The notes under the pieces: model-generated
Told to the model about the DNA's origin: nothing
Databases searched by the model: none
The model's input: the letters and a program-made list of their open reading frames with translations, nothing else
Translations under genes and position numbers: made by a program
Assembly: GCA_965198355.1 (NCBI GenBank)
Contig: CBDAPI010000015.1
Coordinates: 922,608-986,607 of the forward strand
Reading direction: 5' to 3'
Length of the DNA stretch: 64,000 nucleotides
DNA from: Acidobacteriota bacterium
GTDB taxonomy: Bacteria; Acidobacteriota; UBA6911; RPQK01; CBDAPI01
Shown: positions 7,604 to 39,632 of the stretch, piece after piece
Layout of the letters: every line of letters starts with the position of its first letter
Position numbering within the stretch: position 1 is the stretch's first letter

Positions 7604-9248
7604 TTAATGCTAACCCGGATTATGCAAGAGATCTGAATCCGAGTGAGATTTGGGTCCAGAAAAAAAGCCGTAGCTCTCTGATATAAAAGGGTTTACATAA
7701 AAACAACCCTAAACAGGAGCTACGGCTATGTTGAAAACAGTCTGCCAGAATACCCTGCCATTTCACAGCCACAGAGACATCACAGCTCGTTTTGATGGGG
7801 GGAGCCTCACTTCCGACGCAGGATGGTTGTTGTTTGGATCGCTGGATCGGCAACATCGATTGTGCGAGGGCTTCAGTTCGTGTATTGCGGAAAGCCGGGA
7901 CCGACGCTACATTCGTCATGACCTGTTGAAGTTGATCCGACAACGAGTGTTGCAGATCGTGGCCGGCTACGAAGACTGTAATGACGCCGATACGCTGCGC
8001 TCGGATCCGATGCTCAAGACAGTCTGTGATCAGTTGCCCGAGAGCGATCCCGATTTGGCCACCCAGCCGACTTTCTCCCGCTTGGAGAACTCCGTCACCA
8101 AGAAGGATCTGATGCGTCTGAGCCGGTGGCTGCTACGCCGTTATGTGCGCTCCCTGAAGAAGAGACGTCCCGCCAAGATCATCCTGGATCTGGACAGTAC
8201 CGACGACCACACTCACGGCCAACAGGAGTTCGCCTTCTACCACGGGTATTACCGAAACCACATTCTGCATCCTTTGCTGATCTTCGATGCCGCCACGGGA
8301 GACCTGGTCTGTGCCGTGTTGAGACCTGGCAACAAGGGGGCTGCCTCTCACATCGTGCCCATTCTGAAGCGCGTCGTGGAGGCCATCCGACAAGCAGTGG
8401 GGACGGATGTCGAGATTGAGATTCGGGCCGACAGCGGCTTTGCCACGCCTCGGCTCTACGAGTTCTGTGAAGGTGAAGAGAATCAACTCCAATATGTCAT
8501 TGGGTTAAGTCGCAACCCTCGCCTGCAGCGAGTGGTCGAGCCCCTGCTGGATTCGACTCGGGAAAGGTTCGTTGAGCGGGAGGAAAAACAGCGTCAGTTT
8601 GACGAGTTTCTTTATCGAGCCAACAGCTGGGATCGATCCCGTCGCGTCATTGTCAAAGTGGAGGTCGATCAGCGCGGGATCAATCGTCGCTTTGTGGTCA
8701 CCAACCGGGACGATCTCTGCTCCCAATCACTTTATGACCACTACACCGACCGAGGGCAGACCGAGAACTTCATCAAGGCCTTTAAGAATCATCTGAGCAT
8801 GGACCGACTCAGCTGTCATCGATTCCTGGCCAACCAGTTTCGACTCCTCCTGCATGCACTGGCTTACCAGATGTTCGTGCGCCTGCGCGACTATCTGCAC
8901 GGAACCCCCTGGCACAAGCTCGAAATCGAAACCTTACGTCGTCGTGTCCTCAAGATCGGGGCCCGGATCCGACAAACCACTCGACGCATCTGGGTCCATC
9001 TTTCCTCAGCCTTTCCCGAACAACCCCTCTTTCACCTCGTCTTGAGTCGCCTGAACTCCAGCTAGCTTCTCCCAGTTCCCCGAAAAACCGCTTCCGACAC
9101 TCATCCAGGCCCAGATCTGTCTGAAATTCACTCCCCCAACCACTCAAACGCCTCGCCAACCGATATTCTTCGCAAATCCGCCTGTCACAACTGCCCGCTT
9201 CCGAGTTGGGCCACTTCTCGAGCCCTTTTTCAACAGCGGATTACGGTT
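7604..9248 (+). mobile_element. IS1380-like (IS4-superfamily DDE) insertion sequence, copy 1
   Basis: ends TA(A/G)CCCGGATTATGCAAG ... CTTGCATAATCCGGGCTA; ~1.65 kb; >99% identical to the inverted copy at 20286-21952. Confidence 0.8.
7728..9065 (+). CDS. IS1380-family DDE transposase (445 aa)
   Basis: N-terminal ...ARFDGGSLTSDAGWLLFGSLDRQHRL... signature and a D..D..E core; differs by 2 aa from the copy at 20493-21830. Confidence 0.8.
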   Translation: MLKTVCQNTLPFHSHRDITARFDGGSLTSDAGWLLFGSLDRQHRLCEGFSSCIAESRDRRYIRHDLLKLIRQRVLQIVAGYEDCNDADTLRSDPMLKTVCDQLPESDPDLATQPTFSRLENSVTKKDLMRLSRWLLRRYVRSLKKRRPAKIILDLDSTDDHTHGQQEFAFYHGYYRNHILHPLLIFDAATGDLVCAVLRPGNKGAASHIVPILKRVVEAIRQAVGTDVEIEIRADSGFATPRLYEFCEGEENQLQYVIGLSRNPRLQRVVEPLLDSTRERFVEREEKQRQFDEFLYRANSWDRSRRVIVKVEVDQRGINRRFVVTNRDDLCSQSLYDHYTDRGQTENFIKAFKNHLSMDRLSCHRFLANQFRLLLHALAYQMFVRLRDYLHGTPWHKLEIETLRRRVLKIGARIRQTTRRIWVHLSSAFPEQPLFHLVLSRLNSS

Positions 9249-10149
9249 CTTGCATAATCCGGGCTAAGGTGATTTGGGTTGCCGCGTTGGTCGCATGTAC
9301 CGGTACCGTTTTCGTAACTTTTAATCAATATGCTCACTTTTTATCGCCTGATAAGACATCAATTGGCCATTGGAGTGATTATGGATCTGCGTTTCTTGTT
9401 GGTATTGAAAACCTTACCTCAAGGAGTAATCTCAGGACGATAGCTAAATCGGTAGGTCTTTTGAGTATTCCGGCAGCGTTGATCGCCATCATAATTACAG
9501 GATGGCAGCGTAAATGGCAGCTAACAATGTTTTGGTTGATTATGGCCGCCCTTCCAACTGTATTATTTTGGAGCATGATATCGGGAAATAGTGCCCGGCA
9601 TAATCTGATCCCAGGCGTATTTGTGTACGTTTTATTAGCATTACCATTTGCAACCCGCTTACGGCGAGATTGGGTCTACATTCTTGCCATCATCTTTGTT
9701 GTTAATTATTTGTACTATCCGCCCTCAGACAATACTGTTTCTCCTTCTGGCGGATTATTAGGAAATGCGCGTTTACTCAGAGACAGGGCAGAAGAGTACC
9801 ACACTCTGGGAGAAACGATTGCCCACTCAGCTCATCAAAAGATGGCAGTTATAGGAATCGGTTATAGACAACCCTATTTCATATTTGAAACGCTTCGAAG
9901 CCCTCAACTTTCCTATAATAGCCACAAAACAAATTTAAAAAAGGTGCAAACCTTGGAAATGAAAAATGACAACCAGAACCAAACCTTCCTTTGGATATAT
10001 GACGAACCAGAAATATCGGAAATTGTAGAATTAGTCAACAATGGCTATTCCGTAATTGTTATTGATAATGATGAGATGGATGAGATGTTAAAAGAGTTGG
10101 GTAACCTGCCGGAACTTCAAGGCAAGTTGGTGTCAATTGATGTGGAATA

Positions 10150-10400
10150 GGGACGCCAGGAATAGTCCTGTCCGAAAGAGACCGCCCCACTACTGTCCGC
10201 ATCAAACCCGGGGTTCTTCTCCCAGACGACGCCGACTCCTCCGTTGATGTTGAACTTGACGGCGTCGGTGTTAACGAGTTTGACTCCCAGACCACCGGTT
10301 GGGGCGATCCACTAGTCGATCAACTTGAACTCGTCGCTAAGATAGTCAATTCCGCCAAACACGAAAACTCTTTCGCTGAGCAGATAATCGTCTCGAAAAG
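10150..10400 (-). pseudogene. possible fragment of a DUF481/MipA-like outer-membrane beta-barrel gene (in-frame stop)
   Basis: minus-strand translation ...WIAPTGGLGVKLVNTDAVKFNINGGVGVVWEKNPGFDADSSGAVSFGQDYSW. Confidence 0.25.
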
Positions 10401-10410
10401 ACAGGGATGC

Positions 10411-11699: not shown

Positions 11700-11724
11700 T
11701 TCACCTCCAGCGAGCCTTTCAACC

Positions 11725-12666: not shown

Positions 12667-12845
12667 GCTGGGCCCCCCCTGCTTCGGGTGATCCCCCGGG
12701 GTCCCCAGACAATTATTGGGAAGGACGATCTGAACCCCTTCCAGAGGATCGCCGTTTGCGTACCACAAGAGCAGATCGATGCGACGCGGCGCTTAAAGAT
12801 TCTTGATAATCGAATACCATACGTTCGATTTTCAAGAAACCCTCT

Positions 12846-15232: not shown

Positions 15233-18010
15233 GTGCCATCTGTTAGAGTCTCCAAGGATGTGTATTTGGTCGCACTTTTCCCGTCGCACTTTTCCCTTAG
15301 AATAATTCAGTTCACCAACTTGCGTATACCTCTGGTCTTTTCCTTTATCCTGTCCTTCGGCTCGGCAATGGCTCAGTCGGTTGAGCTGGAGTGGGATCCG
15401 AACTCGGAGCCGGATCTGGCTGGATACAACGTTTACCGTTCGCTTTCATCCGGCTCCGGCTACTCCATCGTCAATCCCAGCCTGGTCCCTTCGCCATCGT
15501 ACACGGATACTACGGTCACCCCGGGTAATACCTATTATTATGTTGTCACCGCTCAAAACACTGGTGGCTTGGAGAGCGGTTTTTCCAATGAAATCAATAC
15601 CTTTATAGAGGGGCTTCCCCCAACTGCGGCGCTGACGCTGGTGAAGTCGTCGGATGCAACGTCTGCGCCGGCAGTGGGGGAGACCATCACCTATTCCTAT
15701 GTGGTCACGAACAGCGGCGAGGTGACGCTAACCGGTATTACGGTCACGGACGTTCATGGCGGCATCGGAGGGTCTTTCTCGGGAGTGAGTTGCCCAGCCA
15801 CGAGCATAGCCGTGGGTGACTCCATGACGTGTACAGCAACCTATGTGCTGGTGCAGGCAGTAAATGCAGGTTCGATTTCCAATACAGCCACAGCTGACAG
15901 TAACGAGACCGGCCCGGTGCAGGCAGACGTAAATGCAGGTTCGATTTCCAATACAGCCACAGCTGACAGTAACGAGACCGGCCCGGTGAGCAGTTCTTTG
16001 ACGGTGTCACTTTCCCCGAATGCGGCGCTGACACTGGTGAAGTCGTCCGATGCAACGCCTGACCCGGCAGTGGGAGAGACTATCACCTATTCCTATGTGG
16101 CCACGAACGGCGGCGAGGTGACGCTAACCGGTGTCACTGTCACGGACGTTCATGGCGGCATCGGAGGGTCTTTCTCGGGAGTGAGTTGCCCAGCGACGAG
16201 CCTGGCCGTGGGTGACTCGATGACATGCACAGCAACCTATGTGCTGGTGCAGGCAGACGCAGATGCAGGTTCCGTGTCCAATACAGCCACAGCTGACAGC
16301 AACGAGACCGGCCCGGTGAGCAGTTCTTTGACGGTGTCACTTTCCCCGAATGCGGCGCTGGCACTGGTGAAGTCGTCGGATGCAACGCCTGACCCGGCAG
16401 TGGGAGAGACTATCACCTATTCCTATGTGGCCACGAACGGCGGCGAGGTGACGCTAACCGGTGTCACTGTCACGGACGTTCATGGCGGCATCGGAGGGTC
16501 TTTCTCGGGAGTGAGTTGCCCAGCCACGAGCCTAGCCGTGGGTGACTCCATGACGTGTACAGCAACCTATGTGCTGGTGCAGGCAGACGTAAATGCAGGT
16601 TCGATTTCCAATACAGCCACAGCCGACAGTAACGAGACCGGCCCGGTGAACAGTTCTTTGACGGTACTGATAACCACTACTTTTCTGGTCCTGCCGACGA
16701 CCTTCGACCTGGGAAGTCCGGAATTTGAAGATACTTTCGTGGGTGCCGCAATCGCCAACCTTTCGGACCAGCCCGCCCACGTCGTCGTCTCTGCTCTGAC
16801 GAGCTTCGGGACCGAGGTTGCGAGCCAGCAACTCGGTGACGAGCTATTGGCCATGGGACAAGACGCATTCCTGACCACAGACCACCCCGAACTGGTGGAA
16901 GGCTCGAGCTCCTGGCTCCTGAGGGGAACCTCAGCAAAGGTGCGGGGATTTTTCATGATCGGCGACCGGGATATGAACAAGCTCGACGGGATCGGCGGCG
17001 AACTTGATGAATCGAAGTCACTGTTCTTCCCGCTGGCCAGAGAAAGCGCGGCTGGGAGCACCCTCCTTCATCTCTTCAATGTCGAGAAACAAGCGGGAAC
17101 CGTTACCCTCACTCTCTTCGAGCCTCTGGGGATCCCAGTCGCAGAGGCGGAGATCACGGTCGCACCCTCGGGTGGCGTACAGGGAACGATGGAAGAGATC
17201 TTCGGGGCGGGCCTCGAGTTCTCCGACGGGTACCTGGAGGTTCAGAGCAGTGTTCGGCTCAAAGGATTCGAGTTCTATGCGCAGGAGGGCGCATTTGCAG
17301 CCGTTCCCGGCCAAGCACCGCAGCCGACCTGGAAGCTGTGGACTCCTCATTTCTTTGTGGAGGGCCAGTCTGGTGACACCGAAATCCGCTTGTTGAGTAC
17401 GGATTCCGAAAGAGCCCGCGTCAGCATCCAGGGGTTTGACAACGAGTCCACTTTGATTGGAACCTACGAGCTCGAGATCGAGCCGGGACAACTCTTCGTC
17501 GGAAGTGTCCGGGAGATGCTCAACCTGGACCCCGGAATGGGCGTGATCACAGGCCACCTCGAGATCAGCCTGGAGGCCGGAACTTTCTTTACCTATTCCC
17601 CACAAGTATTGGGACTGGTCACTTTCAGCGCTAACGGAGGCAAATGGCTCTCGACCCTGCCCCTGCTGACCGAAGGACATAAAGAGACCCTGTTTCTCCA
17701 GGTGGCCCAATCTGATCAAATCGGGATGTTCACCGGCCTCGCCGTTCTCAATCCGGGTGAGTCGGCGGCGCAGGTAGAAGTCGAGGTTTTCGATCAGAAC
17801 GGGATCCGAACCGGCCGCGCCGGATTCAGCCTGGCTCCGGGTCAACGTGTGTTGAACTTGCTGGACGGGGACACTTATTTCGGAGACGGCTTCGAACAGA
17901 TCAAGGGACTCTTTCGAGTCAGGAGCACGGTTCCGGTCCTCAGCTTTTCACTCTTTGGAGACTACGGACTCCGGTTTCTTTCAGCGGTGGAAGGGCAGTA
18001 CCCGGAGTAG
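15233..18010 (+). CDS. 925-aa secreted surface protein: N-terminal FN3 domain, 3 tandem DUF11/TIGR01451-type 'conserved repeat domain' copies, and C-terminal unnamed modules shared with 21958-26544 and 29278-31755
   Basis: FN3: VELEWDPNSEPDLAGYNVYRS...NTYYYVVTAQN; DUF11: GETITYSYVVTNSGEVTLTGITVTDV...SCPATS..GDSMTCTATYV x3; C-terminal ...FTGLAVLNPGESAAQVEVEVFDQNG... Confidence 0.8.
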   Translation: MPSVRVSKDVYLVALFPSHFSLRIIQFTNLRIPLVFSFILSFGSAMAQSVELEWDPNSEPDLAGYNVYRSLSSGSGYSIVNPSLVPSPSYTDTTVTPGNTYYYVVTAQNTGGLESGFSNEINTFIEGLPPTAALTLVKSSDATSAPAVGETITYSYVVTNSGEVTLTGITVTDVHGGIGGSFSGVSCPATSIAVGDSMTCTATYVLVQAVNAGSISNTATADSNETGPVQADVNAGSISNTATADSNETGPVSSSLTVSLSPNAALTLVKSSDATPDPAVGETITYSYVATNGGEVTLTGVTVTDVHGGIGGSFSGVSCPATSLAVGDSMTCTATYVLVQADADAGSVSNTATADSNETGPVSSSLTVSLSPNAALALVKSSDATPDPAVGETITYSYVATNGGEVTLTGVTVTDVHGGIGGSFSGVSCPATSLAVGDSMTCTATYVLVQADVNAGSISNTATADSNETGPVNSSLTVLITTTFLVLPTTFDLGSPEFEDTFVGAAIANLSDQPAHVVVSALTSFGTEVASQQLGDELLAMGQDAFLTTDHPELVEGSSSWLLRGTSAKVRGFFMIGDRDMNKLDGIGGELDESKSLFFPLARESAAGSTLLHLFNVEKQAGTVTLTLFEPLGIPVAEAEITVAPSGGVQGTMEEIFGAGLEFSDGYLEVQSSVRLKGFEFYAQEGAFAAVPGQAPQPTWKLWTPHFFVEGQSGDTEIRLLSTDSERARVSIQGFDNESTLIGTYELEIEPGQLFVGSVREMLNLDPGMGVITGHLEISLEAGTFFTYSPQVLGLVTFSANGGKWLSTLPLLTEGHKETLFLQVAQSDQIGMFTGLAVLNPGESAAQVEVEVFDQNGIRTGRAGFSLAPGQRVLNLLDGDTYFGDGFEQIKGLFRVRSTVPVLSFSLFGDYGLRFLSAVEGQYPE
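15620..16675 (+). repeat. three ~330-bp tandem coding repeats with near-identical nucleotide sequence (DUF11 units)
   Basis: 16017-16345 vs 16347-16675 almost base-identical; first unit 15620-15990 more diverged. Confidence 0.75.
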
Positions 18011-18676: not shown

Positions 18677-20257
18677 ATGTTGATACTCGGAATTGGAGGC
18701 TGGCTACATGATGGTTCGGCGGCGCTAGTCCTTGACGGTGAGTGCATTGCCGCGATCGAAGAAGAGAAGTTGCTGCGCCAAAGGCACCCTGGTGGTTTTC
18801 CGGGCCGGGCGACGACGACCTGTCTAAAGATCGCCGGGGCCCGTCGAAAGGATGTCGACATAGTTGCCCTTTCAAAGCCTCTTGACGCCGGGAAAGAGGC
18901 CAGTGCGCTTCTGCATTTGAAGACACTCTTCCCCAATTCGAAAACGGTTATCGTTGATCACCACACAGCGCACGCTGCAGCTGCCTTTTTCCCTTCCCCA
19001 TATGAGAATTCCCGTGTCCTAACGTTGGATCACCATGGTGACGTTTGTTGTGGAACGATTTGGCAAGGTGCGGGGAATCAGTTGCAAACGATAGACGCAA
19101 TCTACTATCCAGACAGCCCGGCAGCTCTCTATACCAAAGTCACAGAGTTGGTAGGCTTTAAGCCCGACTCCGAAGAGCACAAGGTCCAGTGGCTGTCGGT
19201 CACTGGAGAGCCACGGTTCAAGGAGCTGTTTCTAGCGATCCTTGGTATGGGCCGAGATTCGCTCCCGAAGCTTGACCATAGCTATTTTGATACTGGACGC
19301 GCGACCCATGGCGGCTTTAGTGAGCGTTTCTATCGTGAGCTGGACATCAATCTCGATGAGCCCTTGGGCGAGGACATCAAAGCGGATCTGGCGGCGAGCA
19401 TCCAAACAGCCGTTACAGAGACCGTTCTGCGCATGGCTGGAGAAGGAAAAAACATCTGCCTTGGGGGCGGTCTGGCCTACAACGCCTTGCTGATCCAGAG
19501 CATTGAGGAGGCCGGTCGGTTTGAAAACGTATGGATCCAGCCGGTGACAGGGAACGCTGGGATATCGCTTGGCAGCGCCCTGTACGCACTCCATCAGAGC
19601 CAGTCCGACGCCAAAAGGCACGTCTTGCGCAACATCTTCCTGGGGGAAGAGTATGGTAGCGAAGAGATCAAGCGGGTGCTGGAGAATTGCAAACTGCGGT
19701 TCGGCTACCATCAGAGTAAGAGCGAGATGGGTAAAGCTGCAGTGCAGCAACTGACCGACAATAAGATTGTGGCATGGTTCCAGGGCCGAACTGAGTTTGG
19801 TCCTCGCGCACTAGGAAACCGCAGTATTCTGGCCTCTCCTCGCAATCCCTACGCGACACAAAACCTCAACGAGTACATCAAACATCGTGAACCTTTTCGC
19901 AAGTTTGCGGCCTCGATTCCAGAAGAGCTGGCCTCTCAGTACTTTGAGGTTAGTGACAATTCCCGGTTTCTGGCGACGGTAAGCCGCGTCAAGCCCAGTC
20001 ATCAAGAAACATTCAGTCCGGCTTTGCTGGAGGGTGACAGAATTCGGGTCCACGTGGTCTGCAAAGAGGAGAATCAGCTGTACTGGGAGCTCTTACAGGC
20101 GGTAGGGAAAGCGAGTGGACTGCCTGTTGTCTACAACACGTCATTCAACCTCTTCGGAGAGCCATTGGTCTCGGATCCTCGCTCAGCGGTTCGAAGCTTC
20201 TACTCTTCGGGAATCGATACCCTCTTCATCGGGAACTTTGTCGTAGAGAAGAAGTAG
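18677..20257 (+). CDS. NodU/CmcH-family carbamoyltransferase (likely start MLILGIGG; ORF-track start 18635)
   Basis: MLILGIGGWLHDGSAALVLDGECIAAIEEEKLLRQRH...CLGGGLAYNALL. Confidence 0.8.
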   Translation: MLILGIGGWLHDGSAALVLDGECIAAIEEEKLLRQRHPGGFPGRATTTCLKIAGARRKDVDIVALSKPLDAGKEASALLHLKTLFPNSKTVIVDHHTAHAAAAFFPSPYENSRVLTLDHHGDVCCGTIWQGAGNQLQTIDAIYYPDSPAALYTKVTELVGFKPDSEEHKVQWLSVTGEPRFKELFLAILGMGRDSLPKLDHSYFDTGRATHGGFSERFYRELDINLDEPLGEDIKADLAASIQTAVTETVLRMAGEGKNICLGGGLAYNALLIQSIEEAGRFENVWIQPVTGNAGISLGSALYALHQSQSDAKRHVLRNIFLGEEYGSEEIKRVLENCKLRFGYHQSKSEMGKAAVQQLTDNKIVAWFQGRTEFGPRALGNRSILASPRNPYATQNLNEYIKHREPFRKFAASIPEELASQYFEVSDNSRFLATVSRVKPSHQETFSPALLEGDRIRVHVVCKEENQLYWELLQAVGKASGLPVVYNTSFNLFGEPLVSDPRSAVRSFYSSGIDTLFIGNFVVEKK

Positions 20258-20287: not shown

Positions 20288-21952
20288 GTGCTAGCCCGGA
20301 TTATGCAAAAACCGTAGTCCGGTGTTGAAAAACGAGTCGAGAAGTGGCCCAACTCGGAAGCGGGCAGTTGTGACAGGCGGATTTGCGAAGAATATCGGTT
20401 GGCGAGGCGTTTGAGTGGTTGGGGGAGTGAATTTCAGACAGATCTGGGCCTGGATGAGTGTCGGAAGCGGTTTTTCGGGGAACTGGGAGAAGCTAGCTGG
20501 AGTTCAGGCGACTCAAGACGAGGTGAAAGAGGGGTTGTTCGGGAAAGGCTGAGGAAAGATGGACCCAGATGCGTCGAGTGGTTTGTCGGATCCGGGCCCC
20601 GATCTTGAGGACACGACGACGTAAGGTTTCGATTTCGAGCTTGTGCCAGGGGGTTCCGTGCAGATAGTCGCGCAGGCGCACGAACATCTGGTAAGCCAGT
20701 GCATGCAGGAGGAGTCGAAACTGGTTGGCCAGGAATCGATGACAGCTGAGTCGGTCCATGCTCAGATGATTCTTAAAGGCCTTGATGAAGTTCTCGGTCT
20801 GCCCTCGGTCGGTGTAGTGGTCATAAAGTGATTGGGAGCAGAGATCGTCCCGGTTGGTGACCACAAAGCGACGATTGATCCCGCGCTGATCGACCTCCAC
20901 TTTGACAATGACGCGACGGGATCGATCCCAGCTCTTGGCTCGATAAAGAAACTCGTCAAACTGACGCTGTTTTTCCTCCCGCTCAACGAACCTTTCCCGA
21001 GTCGAATCCAGCAGGGGCTCGACCACTCGCTGCAGGCGAGGGTTGCGACTTAACCCAATGACATATTGGAGTTGATTCTCTTCACCTTCACAGAACTCGT
21101 AGAGCCGAGGCGTGGCAAAGCCGCTGTCGGCCCGAATCTCAATCTCGACATCCGTCCCCACTGCTTGTCGGATGGCCTCCACGACGCGCTTCAGAATGGG
21201 CACGATGTGAGAGGCAGCCCCCTTGTTGCCAGGTCTCAACACGGCACAGACCAGGTCTCCCGTGGCGGCATCGAAGATCAGCAAAGGATGCAGAATGTGG
21301 TTTCGGTAATACCCGTGGTAGAAGGCGAACTCCTGTTGGCCGTGAGTGTGGTCGTCGGTACTGTCCAGATCCAGGATGATCTTGGCGGGACGTCTCTTCT
21401 TCAGGGAGCGCACATAACGGCGTAGCAGCCACCGGCTCAGACGCATCAGATCCTTCTTGGTGACGGAGTTCTCCAAGCGGGAGAAAGTCGGCTGGGTGGC
21501 CAAATCGGGATCGCTCTCGGGCAACTGATCACAGACTGTCTTGAGCATCGGATCCGAGCGCAGCGTATCGGCGTCATTACAGTCTTCGTAGCCGGCCACG
21601 ATCTGCAACACTCGTTGTCGGATCAACTTCAACAGGTCATGACGAATGTAGCGTCGGTCCCGGCTTTCCGCAATACACGAACTGAAGCCCTCGCACAATC
21701 GATGTTGCCGATCCAGCGATCCAAACAACAACCATCCTGCGTCGGAAGTGAGGCTCCCCCCATCAAAACGAGCTGTGATGTCTCTGTGGCTGTGAAATGG
21801 CAGGGTATTCTGGCAGACTGTTTTCAACATAGCCGTAGCTCCTGTTTAGGGTTGTTTTTATGTAAACCCTTTTATATCAGAGAGCTACGGCTTTTTTTCT
21901 GGACCCAAATCTCACTCGGATTCAGATCTCTTGCATAATCCGGGCTAGAATC
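20286..21952 (-). mobile_element. IS1380-like insertion sequence, copy 2 (inverted relative to copy 1)
   Basis: ends gcTAGCCCGGATTATGCAA (20283-) and CTTGCATAATCCGGGCTAg (-21952); internal sequence is the reverse complement of 7604-9248. Confidence 0.8.
20493..21830 (-). CDS. IS1380-family DDE transposase (445 aa), copy 2
   Basis: identical to 7728-9065 except for 2 substitutions (N/K, T/R). Confidence 0.8.
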   Translation of the reverse strand: MLKTVCQNTLPFHSHRDITARFDGGSLTSDAGWLLFGSLDRQHRLCEGFSSCIAESRDRRYIRHDLLKLIRQRVLQIVAGYEDCNDADTLRSDPMLKTVCDQLPESDPDLATQPTFSRLENSVTKKDLMRLSRWLLRRYVRSLKKRRPAKIILDLDSTDDHTHGQQEFAFYHGYYRNHILHPLLIFDAATGDLVCAVLRPGNKGAASHIVPILKRVVEAIRQAVGTDVEIEIRADSGFATPRLYEFCEGEENQLQYVIGLSRNPRLQRVVEPLLDSTRERFVEREEKQRQFDEFLYRAKSWDRSRRVIVKVEVDQRGINRRFVVTNRDDLCSQSLYDHYTDRGQTENFIKAFKNHLSMDRLSCHRFLANQFRLLLHALAYQMFVRLRDYLHGTPWHKLEIETLRRRVLKIGARIRQTTRRIWVHLSSAFPEQPLFHLVLSRLNSS

Positions 21953-26930: not shown

Positions 26931-27545
26931 ATGAACGTGAAAATGTCGGCATTGATCGTATCTATGGTCTTGATAGCGGCGGGATTCGTTGGCAACACAG
27001 AAGCAGCTACTATTACGTTGACGGGTTCTCAGATTGACTCTTTCGCTTTTAGCGCCGTAAGTAGTTCCTCGAACGTTTTTTCTGCCAGCAATAATTTTAA
27101 TGGTTTTTTCGATGTCGATTTCGACTCCACCAGCCCCGGCGCTGGATTGGGGGTCTTTGAACTGACAGGCCTCAGCATAACCTACACCGCAGGCGGATAC
27201 CTCTCGCTACTCTTCACGAATTTGAACTTTAGCACCTGGGGCTTCGAGTTGGTTGTTACTACGGATGGCGGAGTTTTCACAAGCGGCGTAACTGCCATCA
27301 CTGCAGGGTTTTCCAGTATTCTGTCCGCCACCCTGGCTTCGGGCTCTACGATCACAGATATTGAGATCTCGGTCTCGGGAACTATACCCAACACGAGCAA
27401 CCCCTTCGGTCTAGACGACGTGGCCGCTGATTGGCGGGTCCAAAGCGTATCCGAACCGGGCTACGTACCCGAACCGGGCACCTTGCTGTTGCTGGGCGCG
27501 GGCCTGCTTGGGTTACCCTTGGTGAGAAGACTTTCAGGAAGGTAG
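26931..27545 (+). CDS. PEP-CTERM sorting-domain protein (exosortase substrate), 204 aa
   Basis: signal peptide; C-terminus ...GYVPEPGTLLLLGAGLLGLPLVRRLSGR = PEP motif + TM + basic tail. Confidence 0.75.
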   Translation: MNVKMSALIVSMVLIAAGFVGNTEAATITLTGSQIDSFAFSAVSSSSNVFSASNNFNGFFDVDFDSTSPGAGLGVFELTGLSITYTAGGYLSLLFTNLNFSTWGFELVVTTDGGVFTSGVTAITAGFSSILSATLASGSTITDIEISVSGTIPNTSNPFGLDDVAADWRVQSVSEPGYVPEPGTLLLLGAGLLGLPLVRRLSGR

Positions 27546-27735: not shown

Positions 27736-28626
27736 TCAGACTCGCGTATCCCTTTCTGATCTGCGAAGAAGCCACAGGACCGGCACCATAAAGATCAGCG
27801 CCAGGATAAAGAAGGGATAACCGCCGCGAGTATGAAGAGGCCCAGACAAAAAACCGTCATCCACATAAACAGTCAGAAGACACAGTGTGACGATGCGGAG
27901 ACCGTTTTTGAAGATCGCGATTGGGACGGCTGCCAGCGCCAGAACCACCTTCGCCCCGGGCGAACGCAGGAAGAAGTGGCCGGCCAGAACTGCCGTGATA
28001 AACAGCGCCAGGCCCGAGCGGATGCCGCTGCACTCGGGGGCCACGTCGATGGTCAGACCCGGAAGTGCAAACACCGTTCCCTCCCGAAAAACCGGGATCG
28101 GCAGCAGTTGGAAAACGGCACCGGTGACTTCGGCCGAAGCCAGCTGCAAAGCTGTTATGACCCTGTTCAGAACGGCGCTGGGAATGGGGATCGCAAAGAC
28201 CAGGAAAGCCAGTGGAAACAGCGCCGCCCGCGAGGCAGCGGGGCCAAAGCACGTCACAAATCCACCGATCCACACCAGAACCATTCCCAAAGCTGTCCAC
28301 GAGAAGAAGTCGTTTTGGTTGAGATTGGCTTGCTGACTTGAGCTCAGGGTAAAAGCGAGCAGACCGGTGCCCAGCAAAGAAAAGCCCAGCACAGGCGAGT
28401 AATCAACACGGAGAAAGATCTTGGTCCGGTGCAGATAAAGAAGATAAATGGAAACCAGTGGAATCAGTGCAAAGTGGGAGTAGTGATTATGCCGCTGAGA
28501 GTAATGGAAGAGGGCAATAATGTGAGTAGAGAATGCACCGAAGAAGCCAACGTTGAAGGTCAAGAAAAAGACGCCGCGTCCGAGTCGGCGGCCACCTGAC
28601 AACAATCTCTCCCCTCGAGTTCCCAC
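27736..28626 (-). CDS. exosortase (Xrt/EpsH family), short 296-aa form; GTG start 1 nt after the upstream gene's stop
   Basis: multi-TM; FAIPIPSAV (P-x-P), APECSGIRS (catalytic Cys), KNGLRIV (N-G-x-R) are exosortase signatures. Confidence 0.75.
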   Translation of the reverse strand: MGTRGERLLSGGRRLGRGVFFLTFNVGFFGAFSTHIIALFHYSQRHNHYSHFALIPLVSIYLLYLHRTKIFLRVDYSPVLGFSLLGTGLLAFTLSSSQQANLNQNDFFSWTALGMVLVWIGGFVTCFGPAASRAALFPLAFLVFAIPIPSAVLNRVITALQLASAEVTGAVFQLLPIPVFREGTVFALPGLTIDVAPECSGIRSGLALFITAVLAGHFFLRSPGAKVVLALAAVPIAIFKNGLRIVTLCLLTVYVDDGFLSGPLHTRGGYPFFILALIFMVPVLWLLRRSERDTRV

Positions 28627-28627
28627 T

Positions 28628-29209
28628 CTATTCGCCCGTCCTGGGAGGGAGGATTGTTACCATCACCATGTCCGTCGCTTCCCTTCCCACCCCGTCCACA
28701 GCCTTGACCTCGAACACAAGCTCGGTCTGTGAGGTGACTTCTGGCGCCAGAAAGACCAGTTCCTGCATATTCATCTCAGTGATCGAGATAATCGGTCCCG
28801 TAGCCTGCATCCAGAGAAAGGCGGCATGCATCACTGGGCAGTTGGCCGTGAGCAGAACCAGCTCACCACCGTACACTTCCAGGTCGGGCCCGGCACTTAC
28901 TGACATCAGCTCGAGTTCGACTTTGGCCTTGACTTCGCTTGAATAGGCGCTTTCAAGTCCCTCGATATCGACCGAAGTGACAACGTAATAAAAAGTTCCG
29001 CCCGGTTCAACTTCTAAGTCGGCATAGAACGGCGGGCCTATAAGTTCCTGGTTCAGCTTCTGATAAGGTCCCCCAGAGACATTGAAGCGGTAGACGTTGT
29101 AGCCCGCAACCCAGCAGCCGTCGGGGGGATCCCACGCCAGTTTGACGGACTGGGAGTAGCCAGCAAGCGTGCTGATGGCGAAGGTCACGGTCAGGATGAG
29201 ATATCGCAT
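28628..29209 (-). CDS. secreted FN3-domain protein (likely start MRYLIL at 29209; ORF-track TTG start 29236)
   Basis: VKLAWDPPDGCWVAGYNVYRF...GTFYYVVTSVD is homologous to the FN3 module of 15233-18010. Confidence 0.65.
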   Translation of the reverse strand: MRYLILTVTFAISTLAGYSQSVKLAWDPPDGCWVAGYNVYRFNVSGGPYQKLNQELIGPPFYADLEVEPGGTFYYVVTSVDIEGLESAYSSEVKAKVELELMSVSAGPDLEVYGGELVLLTANCPVMHAAFLWMQATGPIISITEMNMQELVFLAPEVTSQTELVFEVKAVDGVGREATDMVMVTILPPRTGE

Positions 29210-29223
29210 GGTTGATCTAAACT

Positions 29224-29277
29224 CCCCAATCCGCAATCCATGATTCCCGAAATCCCAAATCCGAAATCCGCAATTTC
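29224..29277 (+). repeat. heptad array (7 units of AATCCGC/AAATCCC/AAATCCG type) filling the spacer between the LRR stop and the FN3 start
   Basis: ccccaatccgcaatccatgattcccgaaatcccaaatccgaaatccgcaatttcc. Confidence 0.7.
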
Positions 29278-32200
29278 CTACCTTCGCCTAGAATTCGTCG
29301 GTGGTGCAGCCGAGAGCGCCGTCAGGTTGTTGGTGCCAAACAGTTGTTGCGCTACGATGTCAACCGTTGAAGAGACCACGATATAGCCTCCCCTCTGCCC
29401 CTCGGTTTCGGGTACTAGTTCCGCGACGGTTCTCGAGATTCTGTGGAACGGATCCAGTTGAAGTTCCCTCACCCCCGTTTGCACTCCTTGGGGAGAAAAG
29501 ACACCAATCTCGATCTCGGCCGGGTCGGGCCCCGGATTGAAAAAGGCCAACCCCGTAAAAAAGCCTTCCAGATTAGCCACCTGATTGAACACGGCTCCCG
29601 AGAACGGCTCCGCTTGGAGCTGAAGAGCTGCAGCAAACTGCAACTGGCCCGGGTCTCCAAACACCACGTCGCCAATGATTCCTGGTCCATTCGCGGTCAT
29701 CTCGAGAGACCCCGTGACCGAGGGGGGCAGATCCATCAACTCCGAGAGATCAGACTCGAGCGTCTCTCTGGGAAGAAGCAAATAGTCCACAGTTTCTCCG
29801 ACGTTATTTCCCACCTCGTCAAACACGGAGAGGCTCACCGTTCGCGCCTCGTCACTGACATTGAGAACTTTGAGGTTCGTGAAGAGTAGGGAAGGGATCT
29901 CACTGGCCTGGGCTGAATAAAGCCGGGAGGCGTCAAACTCGATCCAGGGATTCAAGGCGAAGATCGTCTGCTCATCGCCGAGACTCACGTAATGGAACCC
30001 GAGGATGCCTCTACCCTCTTCCACTTCTGCTTCCAGGAAACCCTCTGAAACCTCGGGTATATCGAACAACTCCTCCACATCCATCGACAACAGGCCATAC
30101 GGCATCAGCGCCACCCTTGTATCCAGAATCTGTGCTGGAAAGATCGAAGTCAGGTGAAGTGTGAGCCGAACGGTTACCGGATCGACATTGGGATTGACCA
30201 AATGAATCCGGGTCTCAGCAGGTTGGCCACGAAAGGCAAGAGGTCCCTGATAGATCCGATCAAAGACCAAACGCCGCGATGCTCGCTCGACAGATATGGA
30301 CCCATCCATCCGGCTGAGATTCCAGTTGAAGAATTGGAAGAACGTGCCTATCTCCGGGTGGCTTGTCGTAATCCGAAGCCAACCGACTTGAGCCGTAGGG
30401 AGAGCAGAAGGACAGAAGAGATCCCGGCCCAGTCTGAGCACTTGCTCTCCCTGATCCAGAGTCACGTTCAGGAGATCCGTCGGGCAGGTTGTCAAATCAC
30501 CGAAGCTCTCGATCTGCAAGTCAACGAATTCATCGGCCTGATTGGAGATCGAGAATCCAGAAAAAGAGCCGCCCTGGGGAGGGACGTCCTCCTCCAGGTA
30601 GAAAGGGAAAAAGACGTCCCGGATTCTCCAGTTTCCTCCCAGCTGCTTCTGACCGAGGAACTGTTCCAAACTCTCGTTTCCCGAAGAGAGCTGGTTCCAA
30701 CGAAGATCCAGCTGTTGATCACCGAGGCGACTAAGATCGAGCAGGTCGGCTGGAACCTCTCCGGACAAATAGTTGGAGCGAAGCGAGAGGACCTGGAGCT
30801 GGGAAAGCCTTCCGAGTGACGCGGGGAGCTCACCTTCGAGGGTGTTATTGGCCAGCGCGAGGACTCGAAGTTGTGCGAGATTTCCGAGCTCGGAAGGGAT
30901 CAGACCCAGCAGCTGGTTATTGTCCAGGGCCAGCACCTCCAGCCGTGAGAGCAGGCTGAGTTGTGTGGGGATCGGGCCGGTCAAGTAGTTGCCAGATAAA
31001 GAAAGAAGCTCCAGGTCCATAACTGCAGCCGGAAGCGCAGTTAGGGTGACCGGAATCTCTCCACTGAGGCGATTGTCTTCCAGCGAGAGACGCAGCAATT
31101 GGGGCATCCCCAAGAGAACGGGAGGAATCGCACCCTCGAGCCGGTTGTGCCCCAAATTCAACGATCTCAGCTTGCTGAGACGTCCCAATTCGGCCGGTAT
31201 GGGACCCCACAAGTGGTTGCCCGCGAGACTGAGATATTCCAGCCGCGCAAGATTGGCAAGACTTGCCGGAATCTCACCGGAGAGTTGATTGTTGCTCAGG
31301 TCCAGGTCTCTGAGTCCGGAAAGCATCCCAATAGAAGGGGGGATGAGACCGTCAAATCGGTTGGAGTACAAGCGCAGGCTATCGAGGCCCGTCAGGTCCC
31401 CGATCTCGGCCGGTATCGGCCCCTCAAACTGATTATCGTAAAGCAAGAGCTGTGTCAGCTGGTTGAGCTGTTCGATATCGCCCGGGACGGGGCCGGTCAG
31501 CCGGTTCTTCTCCACCGAAAGAAGGCGCAGATTCTGAAGTGAACAGATCGACTCTGGAAGTTGGCCATTCAACAGATTGCCACCCAGACCCAATTCCAAG
31601 AGTTCTAGGAGACTGCCTATGTCAATCGGGATGGGGCCGGTTAAAGCGTTGTTCTCGAGACGGAGGAATTGCAACTGCGTCAGCTGCGTGATTTCGGAAG
31701 GAATCGTCCCAGCGAGTTCGTTTCCCGCGAGATTCAACAAGGTGAGTCGATCCAAGTTCCCAATGTTCTGAGGAAGTCCGCCTGAGAAGCTATTGTTCGC
31801 CAGATCGATTCTGCGGAGAGAGCTCAGAGATCCGATTGAAGCCGGTATTGCGCCTTCGAATCGGTTATTGGCAAGTTCCAGCGACTGGAGACTCCCCGAC
31901 TTGTTGATCGTGGCGGGGATTCCTCCCTCGAGATCATTCTCTGAGAGCGAGAGAGACTGCAGAACAGGTAATTCGAAAAGCGCGGGGGGGTCTCCCCGCT
32001 CAACTGGTTATCGTTGAGCGCGAGAACTCGAAGCGACCGGAGATTCCCGATTTCTGGTGGAATGGTTCCAGAGATCTGATTGTGGCCCAGAGAAAGGTAG
32101 CGCAGATTTTCGAGCTGTCCCAACTCGGAAGGGAGTGGTCCACCGAAGCGGTTGCGGCTCAGTGAGAGGTTCTGCAGATTGAGCAGGCTCCCGATCTCAG

Positions 32201-33170
32201 CCGGGATAGTCAAGCTGAGCTGGTTGTCAGCGGCCAAAAGTGAATGAAGCTCGCTCATGCTTTGCCACCCGGCGGGGATCGCCCCAGTAAAGTTATTGAA
32301 GCTTACGTCGAGAAAGTGTAATCGACTAAGGTCTCCCAGTTGGGGGGGTAGCCGGCCGCGAAGGCGATTGTGGTCGAGGCGAAGACTGAACAGGCGTGAG
32401 AGGCCGCCCAGCTGAGCGGGGATTCTTCCGGAAAGCCCGTTCTCCCCGAGGTTGAGAACTTGGAGAGCCTCAAGGGCTCCCATTTCCCGTGGAATCGGTC
32501 CAGTCAGTTCATTCCGGGAGAGATTGAGAGATCTCAACTGTTGCAGTTGTCCCAGTTCCGCTGGGATTTGCCCTCTTAGTCGGTTGCCGGATAAGGAGAT
32601 ATTCCTGAGACTACTCGAATCGCCAAGAGACTGAGGAATCGCTCCCGTAAACAAGTTGTTATCCAGGAGAACCGATTCCAATTGCTGCATCCGGCCTAGA
32701 AAACCTGGAACGGAGCCACTGAGCTTGTTGCCGGCAAGGGAGAGGGTCTTTAGGTTGGGAAGATCCTCGAGACTGTCCGGCAGTTTGTCTGAAAGGGCGT
32801 TGTCATTGAGCCGCAACTCGACAAGCTCATAGAGCAGGCCGATCTCGGTCGAAAGGGAGCCGACGAGATTATTCGCAGACAGGTTGATCTTGAAGACTTG
32901 ACCCTCGCGAACCTCCACACCATGCCACTCCCCCTCAGTTCCCTCCGGTCCGAGCCATCCTTCAGCGTTGAACCACTCTTCGCCGCCCGCTTGCACGTAA
33001 AGATCAATCAGGGCCTCCCGTTCCTGCGGGGGAATGGGTTCGGACGTTCCCCCGTCCTGGCTACGCACGAAGCCGATTCCAAGACAAAGGGATAGTAGTA
33101 GAGCAAGGGAAACTCGCATGAAAGTCATGAAAGTCATGTTCAACAGACTCTTGAGCTTCACTGCCAACAC
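29278..33170 (-). pseudogene. ~1290-aa secreted plant-type (24-residue) LRR protein with the shared C-terminal module; split into 31824-33170 and 29278-31755 by a frameshift in a G7 (minus-strand C7) homopolymer at ~31987-31993. Either a pseudogene or phase-variable
   Basis: LxxLxxLxLxxNxLSGxIPxxLGxL repeats x>30; adding one C restores ...GETPPALFELPVLQSLSLSENDLEGGIPATINKSGSLQSLELANNRFEGAIPASIGSL... and joins the two ORFs. Confidence 0.7.
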
Positions 33171-33182: not shown

Positions 33183-33429
33183 ATTTCAGCAATCCAAATC
33201 CGCAATCCGAAATCCGAGATTCCCTTGTTGTTTCTCTACAGAACCAGAAACCGATAGTACTGGAGCTTAAGAAACTGCAGCGTGACCTCCTGGATACCGT
33301 GCCAGCTTTCGGCCCAGTTCGCCGGAGTCCTAGTTCCTAACACGGGGACGCAGCGAACCTCAATGCTCAACTCACCCAAAGATTCTTGATAGATTCGAGT
33401 CGAGCGTCGGCTGCGGCAGGATCCGGGCG
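33183..33429 (+). repeat. 245-bp direct repeat, copy 1 (heptad array at its 5' end), flanking the IS3 remnant
   Basis: ~99% identical to 34078-34324 (1 indel). Confidence 0.8.
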
Positions 33430-34074
33430 TGGCGGCAGATCCAGAGCCTGACAGCCGGCACGGACTCCGTGGGATTGTGAGAATCGCAAAGCTTCGTCCA
33501 TCAGCTCTCGTCTCCGTTCTCTTCGCTGCTCGCCAGAGAGATTCCCAACAGTTGCGAGACTTTTTTTTGGAGATCCAGCATGGCTTCAAACTTCTCGAGC
33601 TTGCGTTTCAGCTTCCGATTCTCAGCCTCCACTTGCCTCAGTTGATGATCCAGAGGATTGACCGGCTTTGCCTTTCGTCCCCGCTTGCGAGGGGTCAATG
33701 CCTGCAGCGTTCCGTGCTCGCGTTGGCGTCGCCAGGTCTGCAGATTCGACCAGTAAAGTCCTTCTCGGCGCAGTAATGCTCCCACTTCGCCCGACTCTTC
33801 GCAGCCATCGGCCTGCTCCAGGACCCGGAGCTTATAGCGGGCTGAAAACCGGCGACGGGTTGCCTTGGCAGGAACTTCCGGGTCGGGTCGCGGCAACGCC
33901 TTCTCGGGCTCGGTCCGTCCCGCAGCGATTTTGGAGACCTCTCCCCTCCGCTCCGAGGTTTCCAAAATCCTCAGTTTCTTGTCGCTTCTGTTTTCTATCA
34001 TTCTGTAATCCAGCTTCTCGCCCTCTACTCTAATTTAGCCGGGAAGAAGTGTCTCACCATTATTGGCACAGAGG
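33430..34074 (-). mobile_element. IS3-family remnant (same IS as 1-1262): orfB deleted, orfA and right end retained
   Basis: identity to copy A from ~612 to 1262; A8 instead of A7 at the slippery site. Confidence 0.75.
33501..34001 (-). CDS. IS3-family transposase OrfA (166 aa, natural stop)
   Basis: identical to the N-terminus of the 380-1189 product up to ...AMLDLQKK. Confidence 0.8.
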   Translation of the reverse strand: MIENRSDKKLRILETSERRGEVSKIAAGRTEPEKALPRPDPEVPAKATRRRFSARYKLRVLEQADGCEESGEVGALLRREGLYWSNLQTWRRQREHGTLQALTPRKRGRKAKPVNPLDHQLRQVEAENRKLKRKLEKFEAMLDLQKKVSQLLGISLASSEENGDES

Positions 34075-34077
34075 GTT

Positions 34078-34324
34078 TCAGCAATCCAAATCCGCAATCC
34101 GAAATCCGAGATTCCCTTGTTGTTTCTCTACAGAACCAGAAACTCGATAGTACTGGAGCTTAAGAAACTGCAGCGTGACCTCCTGGATACCGTGCCAGCT
34201 TTCGGCCCAGTTCGCCGGAGTCCTAGTTCCTAACACGGGGACGCAGCGAACCTCAATGCTCAACTCACCCAAAGATTCTTGATAGATTCGAGTCGAGCGT
34301 CGGCTGCGGCAGGCGGGCGTCACC
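34078..34324 (+). repeat. 245-bp direct repeat, copy 2 (begins with heptad array 34081-34116)
   Basis: see 33183-33429. Confidence 0.8.
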
Positions 34325-35436: not shown

Positions 35437-36072
35437 GTATCCCCCGGCAAAGCCGGGGGCTTTAATCTTGTGAGCCGCTCAAAGCGGACTTGACGTTGCC
35501 GCTACCGCGGCCACTTGTGCCACCTACAGGTGGCTTGGCTACAGCAGCCTGAGCTGATCCTGGCGACGATCTTCTGCTTCTTGCCGCCGGATATACTCAC
35601 GAATCACTTTCTCATCCCGACCCACCGTCGATACGAAGTATCCGCGAGCCCAGAAGTGCTGTCCAACAAAGTTACGCCGACTCTCTGAAAAGTTCCTCGC
35701 AATGTGGATGGCGCTTTTCCCTTTGATGTACCCGATCACCTGCGCCACAGAAAACTTTGGCGGAATCGAGATCATCACGTGCACGTGATCCGGCAGCAGG
35801 TGGCCCTCTTCAATCAAGCTTTCCTGCTGCCCAGCCAACCGTCGCAGCACCTGACCGAGATGTCTGCGCAGCTCCCCATAAATCAACTTCTTGCGGTACT
35901 TGGGGATGAACACCACATGGTACTTACACTCCCATTTTGTATGCTGTAAGCTCTGGTAGTTACTCATAAAACTCCTTTTCGTGATGCTTTGCTCGGCTCA
36001 CGGAAGGGAGTTTTTTCACCTATTCCCGGAACTGTCAAACTCTGGCTGCCTCCCCGGCAGAGCCGGGGGGAC
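35437..36072. mobile_element. IS200/IS605-family element (tnpA only) bounded by near-identical subterminal hairpins
   Basis: cccccggcaaagccggggg (35441-35459) and ctccccggcagagccgggggg (36050-36070). Confidence 0.6.
35539..35967 (-). CDS. tnpA: IS200-type Y1 (HUH) transposase TnpA
   Basis: WECKYHVVFIPKYRKK...HLLPDHVHVMISIPPKFSVAQVIGYIKGKSA. Confidence 0.85.
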   Translation of the reverse strand: MSNYQSLQHTKWECKYHVVFIPKYRKKLIYGELRRHLGQVLRRLAGQQESLIEEGHLLPDHVHVMISIPPKFSVAQVIGYIKGKSAIHIARNFSESRRNFVGQHFWARGYFVSTVGRDEKVIREYIRRQEAEDRRQDQLRLL

Positions 36073-38458: not shown

Positions 38459-39632
38459 AACTGGCCTAGTGTGCTGTCCGATAAATTCCCGACGTTAACA
38501 TTGAGTGATTGATTCTCTCGCTTTTTTGACCTTTGCCAGGATGGAATCGGCGGTGGCGCGCCACTTGAAGGGCTTGGCCAAGTGTTGATTGTGGACTCGT
38601 ATGTATCGTCGGATCTCCTGTCGCAGATCTCGAACGCTGGTGAAGGAGTTGCGGTAGATGGAGCGACGCTCCAGCTGAGAGAACCAGGTCTCCACGGCAT
38701 TGAGCCAGGAGGCGCTGGTAGGAGTAAAGTGCAGGTGGAAGCGTTCTCGGCGCGCCAGCCAACTTCGAACCTTCTGGGTTTTGTGAGTACTGGAGTTGTC
38801 CAGGATGAGGTGAACGTCCAGATTGGGATCGAGCGCTTGATCGATCTGGCGTAAAAAGGCCAAGAATTCCTGGGCTCGATGCCGTTTCGTGATGCGCCCC
38901 ATCACCTCTCCCGTGGCCACATCGAAAGCGGCGTAAAGGCTAGCCGTGCCGTGCCGCTTGTAGTCGTGTGTTCGTCGCTCGATCTGTCCGGGTTTGAGCT
39001 GGAGCATGGGCTGGGTTCTATCCAGGGCTTGGATCTGGGTCTTCTCGTCCACGGATAAGACCAGAGCATTGTCAGGAGGGTCCATGTAAAGCCCGACGAC
39101 ATCGATCACCTTGTCGGCGAAATGAGGGTCGTGACTGATTTTGAAGTTGCGGATTCGATGAGGTTTCAGGTCGGCCGCCTTCCAGATCTGAGTGACCTGA
39201 TGGCGGCTCACTCCGGCGTACTCGGCCATCAGGCGCACACTCCAGAAGGTCGACTCACAGGGAACCCGTTGTACCGTGGCCTTGAGGATGGCTCGCACTT
39301 TGGCCGGCGCTAACTTTCGGGGGCGGCCTGAGCGAGGTTGATCCTCCAGTCCTGACAGTCCCTGCTGCAGGTAGCGTCGTCGCCACTTCTGAACAGTGAG
39401 CAAGCGCTTGGACAGTCTTTCAGACACCTGTGTTGCCGTTAACCCTTGGCCGCAAAGCAGGATCAACTCGGCCCTTTCGGCCAGACTGCGCCGGGTCTTG
39501 GAGGCTCGCAACCAGGAACGCAAAATCTCTCGATCGTCTTCGGGGAGTTGTAGTTGGATATGTGGTCTTGCCATACGGAATGATAGCGAAAAGCCCTGAC
39601 TATTAACATCGTGAACTTTCCGGACAGTACAC
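38459..39632 (-). mobile_element. IS630/Tc1-mariner-family insertion sequence with TA target duplication
   Basis: inverted repeats GTGTGCTGTCCGATAAATTCCCGACGTTAACA / reverse complement GTGTACTGTCCGGAAAGTTCACGATGTTAATA; TA on both flanks. Confidence 0.75.
38495..39574 (-). CDS. IS630-family DDE transposase (359 aa)
   Basis: HTH ...GLTATQVSERLSKRLLTVQKWRRRY...; DDE core ...LVLSVDEKTQIQA...LILDNSSTHK...WLNAVETWFS. Confidence 0.85.
   Translation of the reverse strand: MARPHIQLQLPEDDREILRSWLRASKTRRSLAERAELILLCGQGLTATQVSERLSKRLLTVQKWRRRYLQQGLSGLEDQPRSGRPRKLAPAKVRAILKATVQRVPCESTFWSVRLMAEYAGVSRHQVTQIWKAADLKPHRIRNFKISHDPHFADKVIDVVGLYMDPPDNALVLSVDEKTQIQALDRTQPMLQLKPGQIERRTHDYKRHGTASLYAAFDVATGEVMGRITKRHRAQEFLAFLRQIDQALDPNLDVHLILDNSSTHKTQKVRSWLARRERFHLHFTPTSASWLNAVETWFSQLERRSIYRNSFTSVRDLRQEIRRYIRVHNQHLAKPFKWRATADSILAKVKKARESITQC

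Follow-up and report, generated by a model that had tools for sequence, protein, structure and literature searches.

A plant-type leucine-rich repeat gene interrupted at a cytosine run one base short in an exosortase locus of an Acidobacteriota bacterium

In a 64,000-nucleotide stretch from an Acidobacteriota bacterium (GenBank assembly GCA_965198355.1, contig CBDAPI010000015.1, positions 922,608 to 986,607; hereafter the window), two open reading frames (ORFs) of the minus strand, 31824..33170 and 29278..31755, both encode leucine-rich repeats (LRRs) of the plant-specific type. This raises the question of whether they constitute a single gene and, if so, whether the break between them is a genetic switch, a mutation or an error of the assembly. 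A prior inspection of the nucleotide sequence without database searches (hereafter the sequence-only reading) had proposed a candidate phase-variable contingency locus. We find that both ORFs belong to a single gene, which is broken at a run of seven cytosines (C7) lacking one base; for the origin of the break, we lean slightly towards a real mutation over a consensus error.

One gene, one base short

The upstream ORF (31824..33170) codes for 448 residues, of which 1-396 are authentic, comprising a signal peptide, an N-terminal cap and 12.7 LRRs, while 397-448 are an out-of-frame tail. The downstream ORF (29278..31755) codes for 825 residues from its first TTG, with 14 LRRs and a C-terminal module, and has no signal peptide of its own; public gene calls begin it at 31740, giving a product of 820 residues. 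At the junction, the coding strand reads CAG TTG AGC GGG GAG ACC CCC CCG CGC, with the C7 (G7 on the plus strand) occupying 31990-31984: the homopolymer recognized earlier is confirmed, albeit 3 nt away from the approximate position (31987-31993) then given for it. The run starts at the second base of ACC (T394), takes in the codon CCC (P395) and ends at the second base of CCG (P396). The LRR-like character of the upstream frame is lost right past ...NQLSGETPP, and that frame continues for 52 out-of-frame residues to a stop at 31824. As the downstream frame is open from 32007, the switch between the two is confined to 31984-32007 and is thus pinned to the C7 run.

Insertion of one C into this run yields an ORF of 1297 residues reading ...LSGETPPALFELPVLQSLSLSENDLEGGIP... 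across the junction, exactly as the sequence-only reading had quoted it. The restored run of eight (C8) spells ACC CCC CCC GCG, i.e., T P P A, with the product reading ...ETPPALFEL..., and the junction stretch of this product, SGETPPALFELPVLQ, is the one expected in the full-length protein. The LRR unit bearing the run (residues 380-403, LRVLALNDNQLSGETPPALFELPV) falls in perfect register in the reconstruction; since this register survives only with the +1 correction, the ancestral state is C8. The whole reconstructed gene (29278..33170, minus strand) encodes a Sec-type signal peptide, the N-terminal cap, 30 LRRs and, at the C-terminus, a module of some 455 residues. The LRR units extend over residues 92-815, with 29 successive spacings of 24 residues and one of 28, and with the period unbroken at the junction, in keeping with the earlier proposal of a single gene of about 1290 codons without a gap in repeat phase. 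For annotation, the lesson is that 31824..33170 and 29278..31755 are to be handled as a single 1297-residue gene.

Two local features accompany the break. A second C7 run of the same gene (32342..32348, minus strand) lies in frame at the matching position of a different LRR unit, where it encodes L-P-P-Q (CCC CCC CAG). Further, a small GC hairpin (GCGGGG/CCCCGC, 6 bp; 31982..31999, minus strand) includes part of the broken run as its 3' arm. Its DNA fold of -7.3 kcal/mol (z -2.37) was equaled by 5 of 200 shuffles, and it could favor polymerase slippage, whether in the cell or in the sequencer.

Origin of the missing base

We give an even chance to the reading that the break is a real, very recent loss of one C by replication slippage, such that the window carries a young pseudogene or "OFF" allele of this population. 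The most direct evidence comes from the protein database, where the C-terminal fragment is present twice, on a 443-kb contig (P0001) and on the 1.23-Mb contig from which the window derives (P0121), whereas the N-terminal 448-residue fragment has no near-identical entry there. Both copies are 820 residues long, start from the same internal TTG and differ by a single residue (D/E); because neither an intact gene nor a break elsewhere would yield such a call, this favors a real mutation. (The homology match lists appear to be confined to about 0.57-1.75 times the query length, which would account for P0001 being missed in two of them.) The remaining 7-8-base runs in coding sequence are all in frame, and the five other G/C runs of at least 7 bases, among them the sister C7 of the LRR gene (32342-32348) and a C8 (50615-50622), lie in intact ORFs. 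The window agrees at 100% with two other assemblies (L006 and L008) over 7.2 kb. The locus has, moreover, suffered other damage. Immediately before the LRR start codon (33184..34313), two copies of a 237-nt direct repeat (33184-33420 and 34076-34313), one indel apart, bracket a truncated 646-nt IS3-family fragment (33430-34075) in an A-B-A arrangement; as the repeat ends 14 nt upstream of the start codon, the native 5' region of the gene has been rearranged. This insertion sequence (IS) and duplication damage is unquestionably real and favors a real mutation. On the same side count the apparent gene remnants at 4156-5565 as well as an IS insertion (60447/60448) and a rearrangement (below 59562) in which sibling assemblies differ. 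The 3.9 kb of the LRR gene show no second lesion; if the mutation is real, the event is either very young or reverts often enough for the gene to remain under selection.

If the mutation is real, the following course of events is plausible. The unprogrammed loss of one C from the C8 run would interrupt the gene and would be revertible like any homopolymer indel, without being an evolved switch. The C8 itself would exist solely because Thr-Pro-Pro is written there in the genome's favorite codons (ACC CCC CCC). The cell would then make, for secretion, only an LRR stub of 396 residues that ends in a nonsense tail of 52, and the 820-residue remainder, being devoid of a signal peptide, would be dead. 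The architecture of the protein is uncharacterized but widespread, and the event is another instance of the known homopolymer frameshift. As it stands, it matters little: in a long-read metagenome-assembled genome (MAG), the break of an accessory surface-protein gene by one homopolymer base is routine, be it a young pseudogene or a consensus error.

The strongest rival, a serious prospect although one that falls short of an even chance, is a long-read (HiFi-like) consensus error, with the true sequence being C8, the gene intact and functional, and the frameshift existing only in the assembly. The sequence-only reading had ranked a sequencing error as an equal alternative, and this is lent weight by the sibling assemblies of the same population in ENA and Logan, those of low coverage being full of +-1 homopolymer indels. 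Some of their contigs bear metaMDBG-style names with coverage (e.g., ctg223821_2x_l and ctg241831_12x_c), and ERR13605531 is a sequencing run seen in these data. Over 11.4 kb, the differences between one 2x contig (L007) and a Flye-style contig (L008) amount to 13 one-base indels, each in a homopolymer of 2-5 nt, and 0 substitutions; homopolymer length is thus the exact failure mode of the platform. These indels shatter genes, and the splits in the low-coverage (2x) contigs include a sigma-54 activator and a methyltransferase. In another 2x contig (L005), compared with 7783-14699 of the window, a GG/GGG difference splits ORF 9206..10150. That the window itself comes from a long-read assembly is indicated by its contig spanning near-identical IS copies, namely those of a 1.66-kb IS1380 element (99.5% identity, 8 mismatches, no gaps) and of a 646-nt IS3 segment (about 100%). 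The break combines a +-1 homopolymer discrepancy with a platform shown to err in this very manner. Assembly by metaMDBG compresses homopolymers, and the subsequent polishing mends "mostly homopolymers" (PMC11392814); the nanoMDBG paper holds that frameshift-truncated proteins in long-read metagenome assemblies "in general ... will be errors" (PMC13087279). The LRR gene resembles such IDEEL-type artefacts (PMC13087279, PMC11392814) in lying on a long-read contig, in the one-base shortfall of one of the longest homopolymers, in its otherwise perfect halves and in the same kind of break being found throughout the sibling low-coverage assemblies. To these points that weigh against a real mutation several others are to be added: (i) two of the four runs expected as 8-mers look one base short, namely the C8 of the LRR gene and an IS3 A8; (ii) the window contains two further one-base frame anomalies (46835-46837, and the A7/A8 of IS3); (iii) the pristine state of both gene halves is as compatible with an artefact as with a very young mutation; (iv) the 443-kb contig is taken to share the tract state on the strength of its identical 820-residue call; (v) the two assemblies holding this fragment may share reads. 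Conversely, the LRR break departs from the IDEEL-type artefacts in that it apparently recurs in another assembly, whose haplotype differs by one amino acid, so that independent read sets would have to repeat the same mistake; further, the other 7-8-mers of the window are correct. The agreement over 7.2 kb with the Logan and Flye-style assemblies, the absence of gaps between the IS1380 copies and the decent coverage implied by a 1.2-Mb contig also speak against a consensus error. Recent slippage and consensus error cannot be separated from the sequence alone; on the balance set out above, we lean slightly towards the base being absent from the DNA and not from the consensus alone.

That the C tract is an evolved contingency switch, with coexisting C7/C8 (or C9) variants toggling expression of the LRR protein adaptively by slipped-strand mispairing, appears improbable to us. 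The tract has the placement of simple sequence repeat (SSR) contingency loci and barely reaches their length: it is a G/C homopolymer (C7, or C8 when intact) in an ORF for a secreted protein of surface type, the frame switches when its length changes by +-1, a small hairpin overlaps it and it attains the cutoff of at least 7 G/C bases (PMC6321876). In these respects, it is akin to the poly-G/C phase-variable genes of Campylobacter, Neisseria and Haemophilus, where a +-1 change in a G/C run inside a gene for a secreted or surface protein likewise switches between a full-length and a truncated product (PMC6321876). However, this cutoff is the screening threshold of PhasomeIt, set for the AT-rich Campylobacter, and its authors caution that tracts at the cutoff may mutate too little for efficient reversible switching (PMC6321876); 7-8 bases lie at the low-mutability end of the range. 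Unlike the tracts of those pathogens, the one at hand occurs at chance frequency. In the window (54% GC), CCC makes up 31% of the Pro codons and ACC 36% of the Thr codons, both being the commonest, and Pro-Pro is most often written CCCCCC (8 of 36), so that the run is simply the default spelling of Thr-Pro-Pro; Pro-Pro after a conserved "I/L-P" recurs in several LRR units of the gene. Coding sequences hold 5 G/C runs of at least 7 bases, where synonymous shuffles give 6.3+-2.1, and a simple base-composition model predicts about 10 for the whole window, which has 6. The tract is also absent from homologs of like architecture. At the corresponding site, the homolog P0033 (locus L003) has GGTGACATGCCGGCA (GDMPA) and P0018 (locus L002) has GGCGCCCTGCCCGGT (GALPG), neither with a run, and the LRR gene of L003 has no run of 6 or more bases anywhere; the sequence-only reading had suggested such a comparison for orthologs. 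Thus, with the commonest codons, no enrichment and homologs devoid of it, the run looks like a by-product of codon usage and not a maintained contingency tract. The sister C7 of the same gene is in frame, the two assemblies with the 820-residue fragment appear to be in the same state, no variation in tract length having been seen between them, and the organism is an environmental one with no known phasome. The candidate contingency locus has accordingly found no positive support, and, since both enrichment and conservation fail, we do not file it as one. By the same token, it is unlikely that an environmental Acidobacteriota-like bacterium here uses a population-level ON/OFF switch for a matrix-anchored LRR adhesin encoded in an exosortase locus; a true C7/C8 mixture, were there one, would rank among the few documented examples of SSR phase variation in free-living bacteria of soil or sediment type, outside the host-adapted pathogens. 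Programmed recoding, by which the full-length protein would be made from C7 via -1 ribosomal frameshifting or transcriptional slippage, is very improbable and was rejected. The heptamer C_CCC_CCG at 31989-31983 (ACC CCC CCG) does formally fit the slippery X_XXY_YYZ in the 0 frame, and a -1 slip on it would yield the exact C8 product. The same type of heptamer stands at the frame junction of the IS3-family -1 frameshift (A_AAA_AAG/A), of which the window has a canonical example at 33561-33568. In contrast to that system, the LRR heptamer is C-rich, is absent from the homologs, belongs to an otherwise single-frame family and is not followed by a frameshift-stimulating structure, as the fold of the next 104 nt is no more stable than that of shuffled sequences (z -0.02); nor does an Rfam scan find anything near the break, its sole match in the window being a group II intron. 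C-rich heptamers and C/G runs are not known to act as efficient slippery sites in bacteria. Lastly, we see hardly any likelihood of two naturally separate genes, for a 448-residue secreted LRR protein and an 820-residue LRR-plus-module protein. Both ORFs are long and open, and LRR-only proteins of 450-800 residues do exist among the homologs of the N-terminal fragment; yet one added base makes the repeat phase continuous over the junction, the upstream ORF ends in 52 non-LRR residues, the downstream one starts without a signal peptide, and all the homologs with the full architecture are single ORFs. It is on the continuous phase and the single-ORF homologs that this possibility was rejected.

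The protein, its relatives and its C-terminal module

The reconstructed protein belongs to the plant-specific (PS) LRR class, having tandem 24-residue repeats of the form LxxLxLxxNxLxGxIPxxLxxLxx, and Pfam recovers from it LRR families only (LRR_1, LRR_8 and LRR_14). The signal peptide and the cap (ER.ALI.LY...W..W.GV) were read by eye and from the alignable N-termini of four full-architecture homologs, P0018 (1274 residues), P0033 (1221), P0013 (1323) and P0067 (1294), each being about 33-36% identical to the reconstructed one. P0033 comes from the Acidobacteriota MAGs GCA_037388505.1 and GCA_037388625.1, and both it and P0018 are encoded in exopolysaccharide (EPS) loci that also have genes for an exosortase, a sugar transferase and aminotransferases. 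Searches at the level of contigs returned less: a scan of genome contigs with the 825-residue fragment found only one distant LRR protein from Ruminococcaceae, a scan of metagenome contigs with the 1297-residue protein found no relative, and access via the adjacent multicopy IS200 gene led only to other IS200 sites; no close ortholog or second copy of the tract was thereby obtained as DNA.

Plant-type LRRs had been described as uncommon in bacteria, which does not hold: 6029 proteins match at E<=1e-10 among 8000 scored candidates, the top matches being mostly bacterial or metagenomic. Among the top 120, most are coupled to bacterial domains (T9SS, Big_2 and peptidase domains), and plant receptor-like kinases (RLKs) are present as well. 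With thousands of bacterial and metagenomic relatives, the LRR protein is not exotic, and these relatives rule out both the rarity of such LRRs in bacteria and a recent transfer from plants. With the plant PS-LRR proteins, i.e., the ectodomains of LRR-RLKs and receptor-like proteins (RLPs) such as FLS2, BRI1 and PGIP, it has in common the 24-residue unit LxxLxLxxNxLxGxIPxxLgxLxx, and the "W..W.GV" motif of its cap resembles the plant LRRNT. In contrast to the LRR-RLKs and RLPs, it possesses a bacterial Sec signal and a C-terminal module of four beta-sandwiches, is encoded in an exosortase/EPS locus and lacks Cys-pair caps, a transmembrane segment and a kinase.

The C-terminal module (29281..30651, minus strand) comprises four tandem beta-sandwich domains that are TM1070/ASRT-like, i.e., of the fold seen in TM1070 (PDB 1nc7) and the Anabaena sensory rhodopsin transducer (PDB 2ii7). 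Differing from these, the four domains are here fused at the C-terminal end of large secreted proteins, where they are predicted to form a rigid array (pTM, the predicted template modeling score, 0.89). Neither Pfam nor NCBIfam has a model for the module, and only a marginal similarity to the Pfam family DUF5719 is seen in some homologs. The sequence-only reading had already noticed that the module is common to a second gene of the window, and the alignment agrees: the copies in the LRR gene and in ORF 15233..18010 are 27% identical over 445 residues, the second copy lying at 16733-18007 on the plus strand. Beyond the window, thousands of secreted proteins possess it, a profile search recovering 4377 cluster representatives at E<=1e-3, of which 1208 remain at E<=1e-30. 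Its position is nearly always C-terminal, many copies terminate in ...LSAVPP..., and the passengers are varied, including LRR, FG-GAP/VCBS, BNR/sortilin, CotH-like and RHS domains. This large unnamed family, which ends many secreted multidomain proteins and occurs in exosortase/EPS loci, is the more reusable by-product of the present analysis.

In exosortase loci, the module may serve as an anchor to EPS or to the envelope, and we infer that the LRR protein is secreted and held by it either on the surface of the cell or within the EPS matrix. In such an arrangement, the solenoid of 30 LRRs would be the binding part of a secreted surface or matrix protein, with the four TM1070/ASRT-like beta-sandwiches probably attaching it to the cell envelope or to the exopolysaccharide of the surrounding locus. 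We considered the protein as a substrate of the neighboring exosortase and rejected this, as it is without a PEP-CTERM: its end, ...LTALSAAPPTNSRRR, shows neither the helix nor an NCBIfam PEP-CTERM match.

The exosortase neighborhood and other anomalies of the window

Downstream of the LRR gene, at a distance of 41 nt, lies a gene for a 202-residue PKD/FN3-like partner (28628..29236, minus strand), and 1 nt further on that for an exosortase of the EpsH family (27736..28626, minus strand), which scores 127 bits against TIGR02602 (cutoff 105.55) and matches no specific Xrt subtype at its own cutoff. The opposite strand at 26931..27545 encodes a protein with a PEP-CTERM motif. An apparent counterpart of the 202-residue gene is found in L003, where a protein of 207 residues with a similar FN3-like N-terminal motif (by eye) directly follows the LRR gene. 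The earlier proposal that the LRR gene heads an operon ending with the exosortase fits the spacing in the window, but the order is not conserved, the exosortase of the homolog loci lying upstream and on the opposite strand.

The 925-residue protein encoded by 15233..18010 starts with an FN3-like segment, as in the 202-residue protein, and ends with the common C-terminal module. Its DUF11 repeats are written as near-identical tandem repeats of about 330 nt (15615-16665, plus strand; 90-98% identity). The block that contains this gene and a carbamoyltransferase is flanked by inverted IS1380 copies (7610-9266 and 20292-21948).

A second split gene codes for another carbamoyltransferase (45625-47398, minus strand), which is read in two overlapping ORFs, one with Carbam_trans_N over 1-172 and the next with its continuation over 185-346 and Carbam_trans_C. 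There is an apparent change of GG to GGG at about 46835-46837, and the frame is regained once one G is taken out of the GGG in "aggagaGGGaactgg"; at 18635-20257, the window has an intact paralog. Likewise, two IS3-family copies of the minus strand (1-1263 and 33430-34075) are identical save for the length of their slippery run of A. This is A8 in the truncated copy (T8 at 33561-33568), with OrfB in the canonical -1 frame, and A7 in the full copy (T7 at 750-756), which runs off the edge of the window and has OrfB in the +1 frame; the latter is either a dead IS copy or a further homopolymer miscall.

Mobile elements are frequent elsewhere in the window. A group II intron lies within the EPS cluster (42033-43815, minus strand), its reverse transcriptase/maturase ORF being at 42033-43322 and the Rfam match, group-II-D1D4-4, at 43678-43815. 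Nearby are genes for an IS630-like DDE_3 transposase (38495-39574) and an IS200 TnpA (35539-35967). The latter gene is highly multicopy (34 index blocks) and also occurs on a circular 124-kb contig with RepA_C (L010). At 4156-5565 (plus strand), short ORFs of 123, 176 and 93 residues look like gene remnants, that of 93 residues resembling by eye the C-terminal piece of an epimerase, and they adjoin a complete IS3-type element (orfA 5934-6215, orfB 6287-7135); this suggests the IS-driven decay of an older EPS cluster.

The Flye-style contig L008 (ENA ERZ25071889 contig_44) has an IS3-family element, as at 5864-7174 of the window, inserted at 60447/60448, and is otherwise 100% identical. It departs from the window below 59562, where its sulfotransferase has 307 residues as against 264 in the window. 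These differences are real structural polymorphism within the population. Close by, a 161-nt direct repeat occupies 60660-60820 and 60827-60987.

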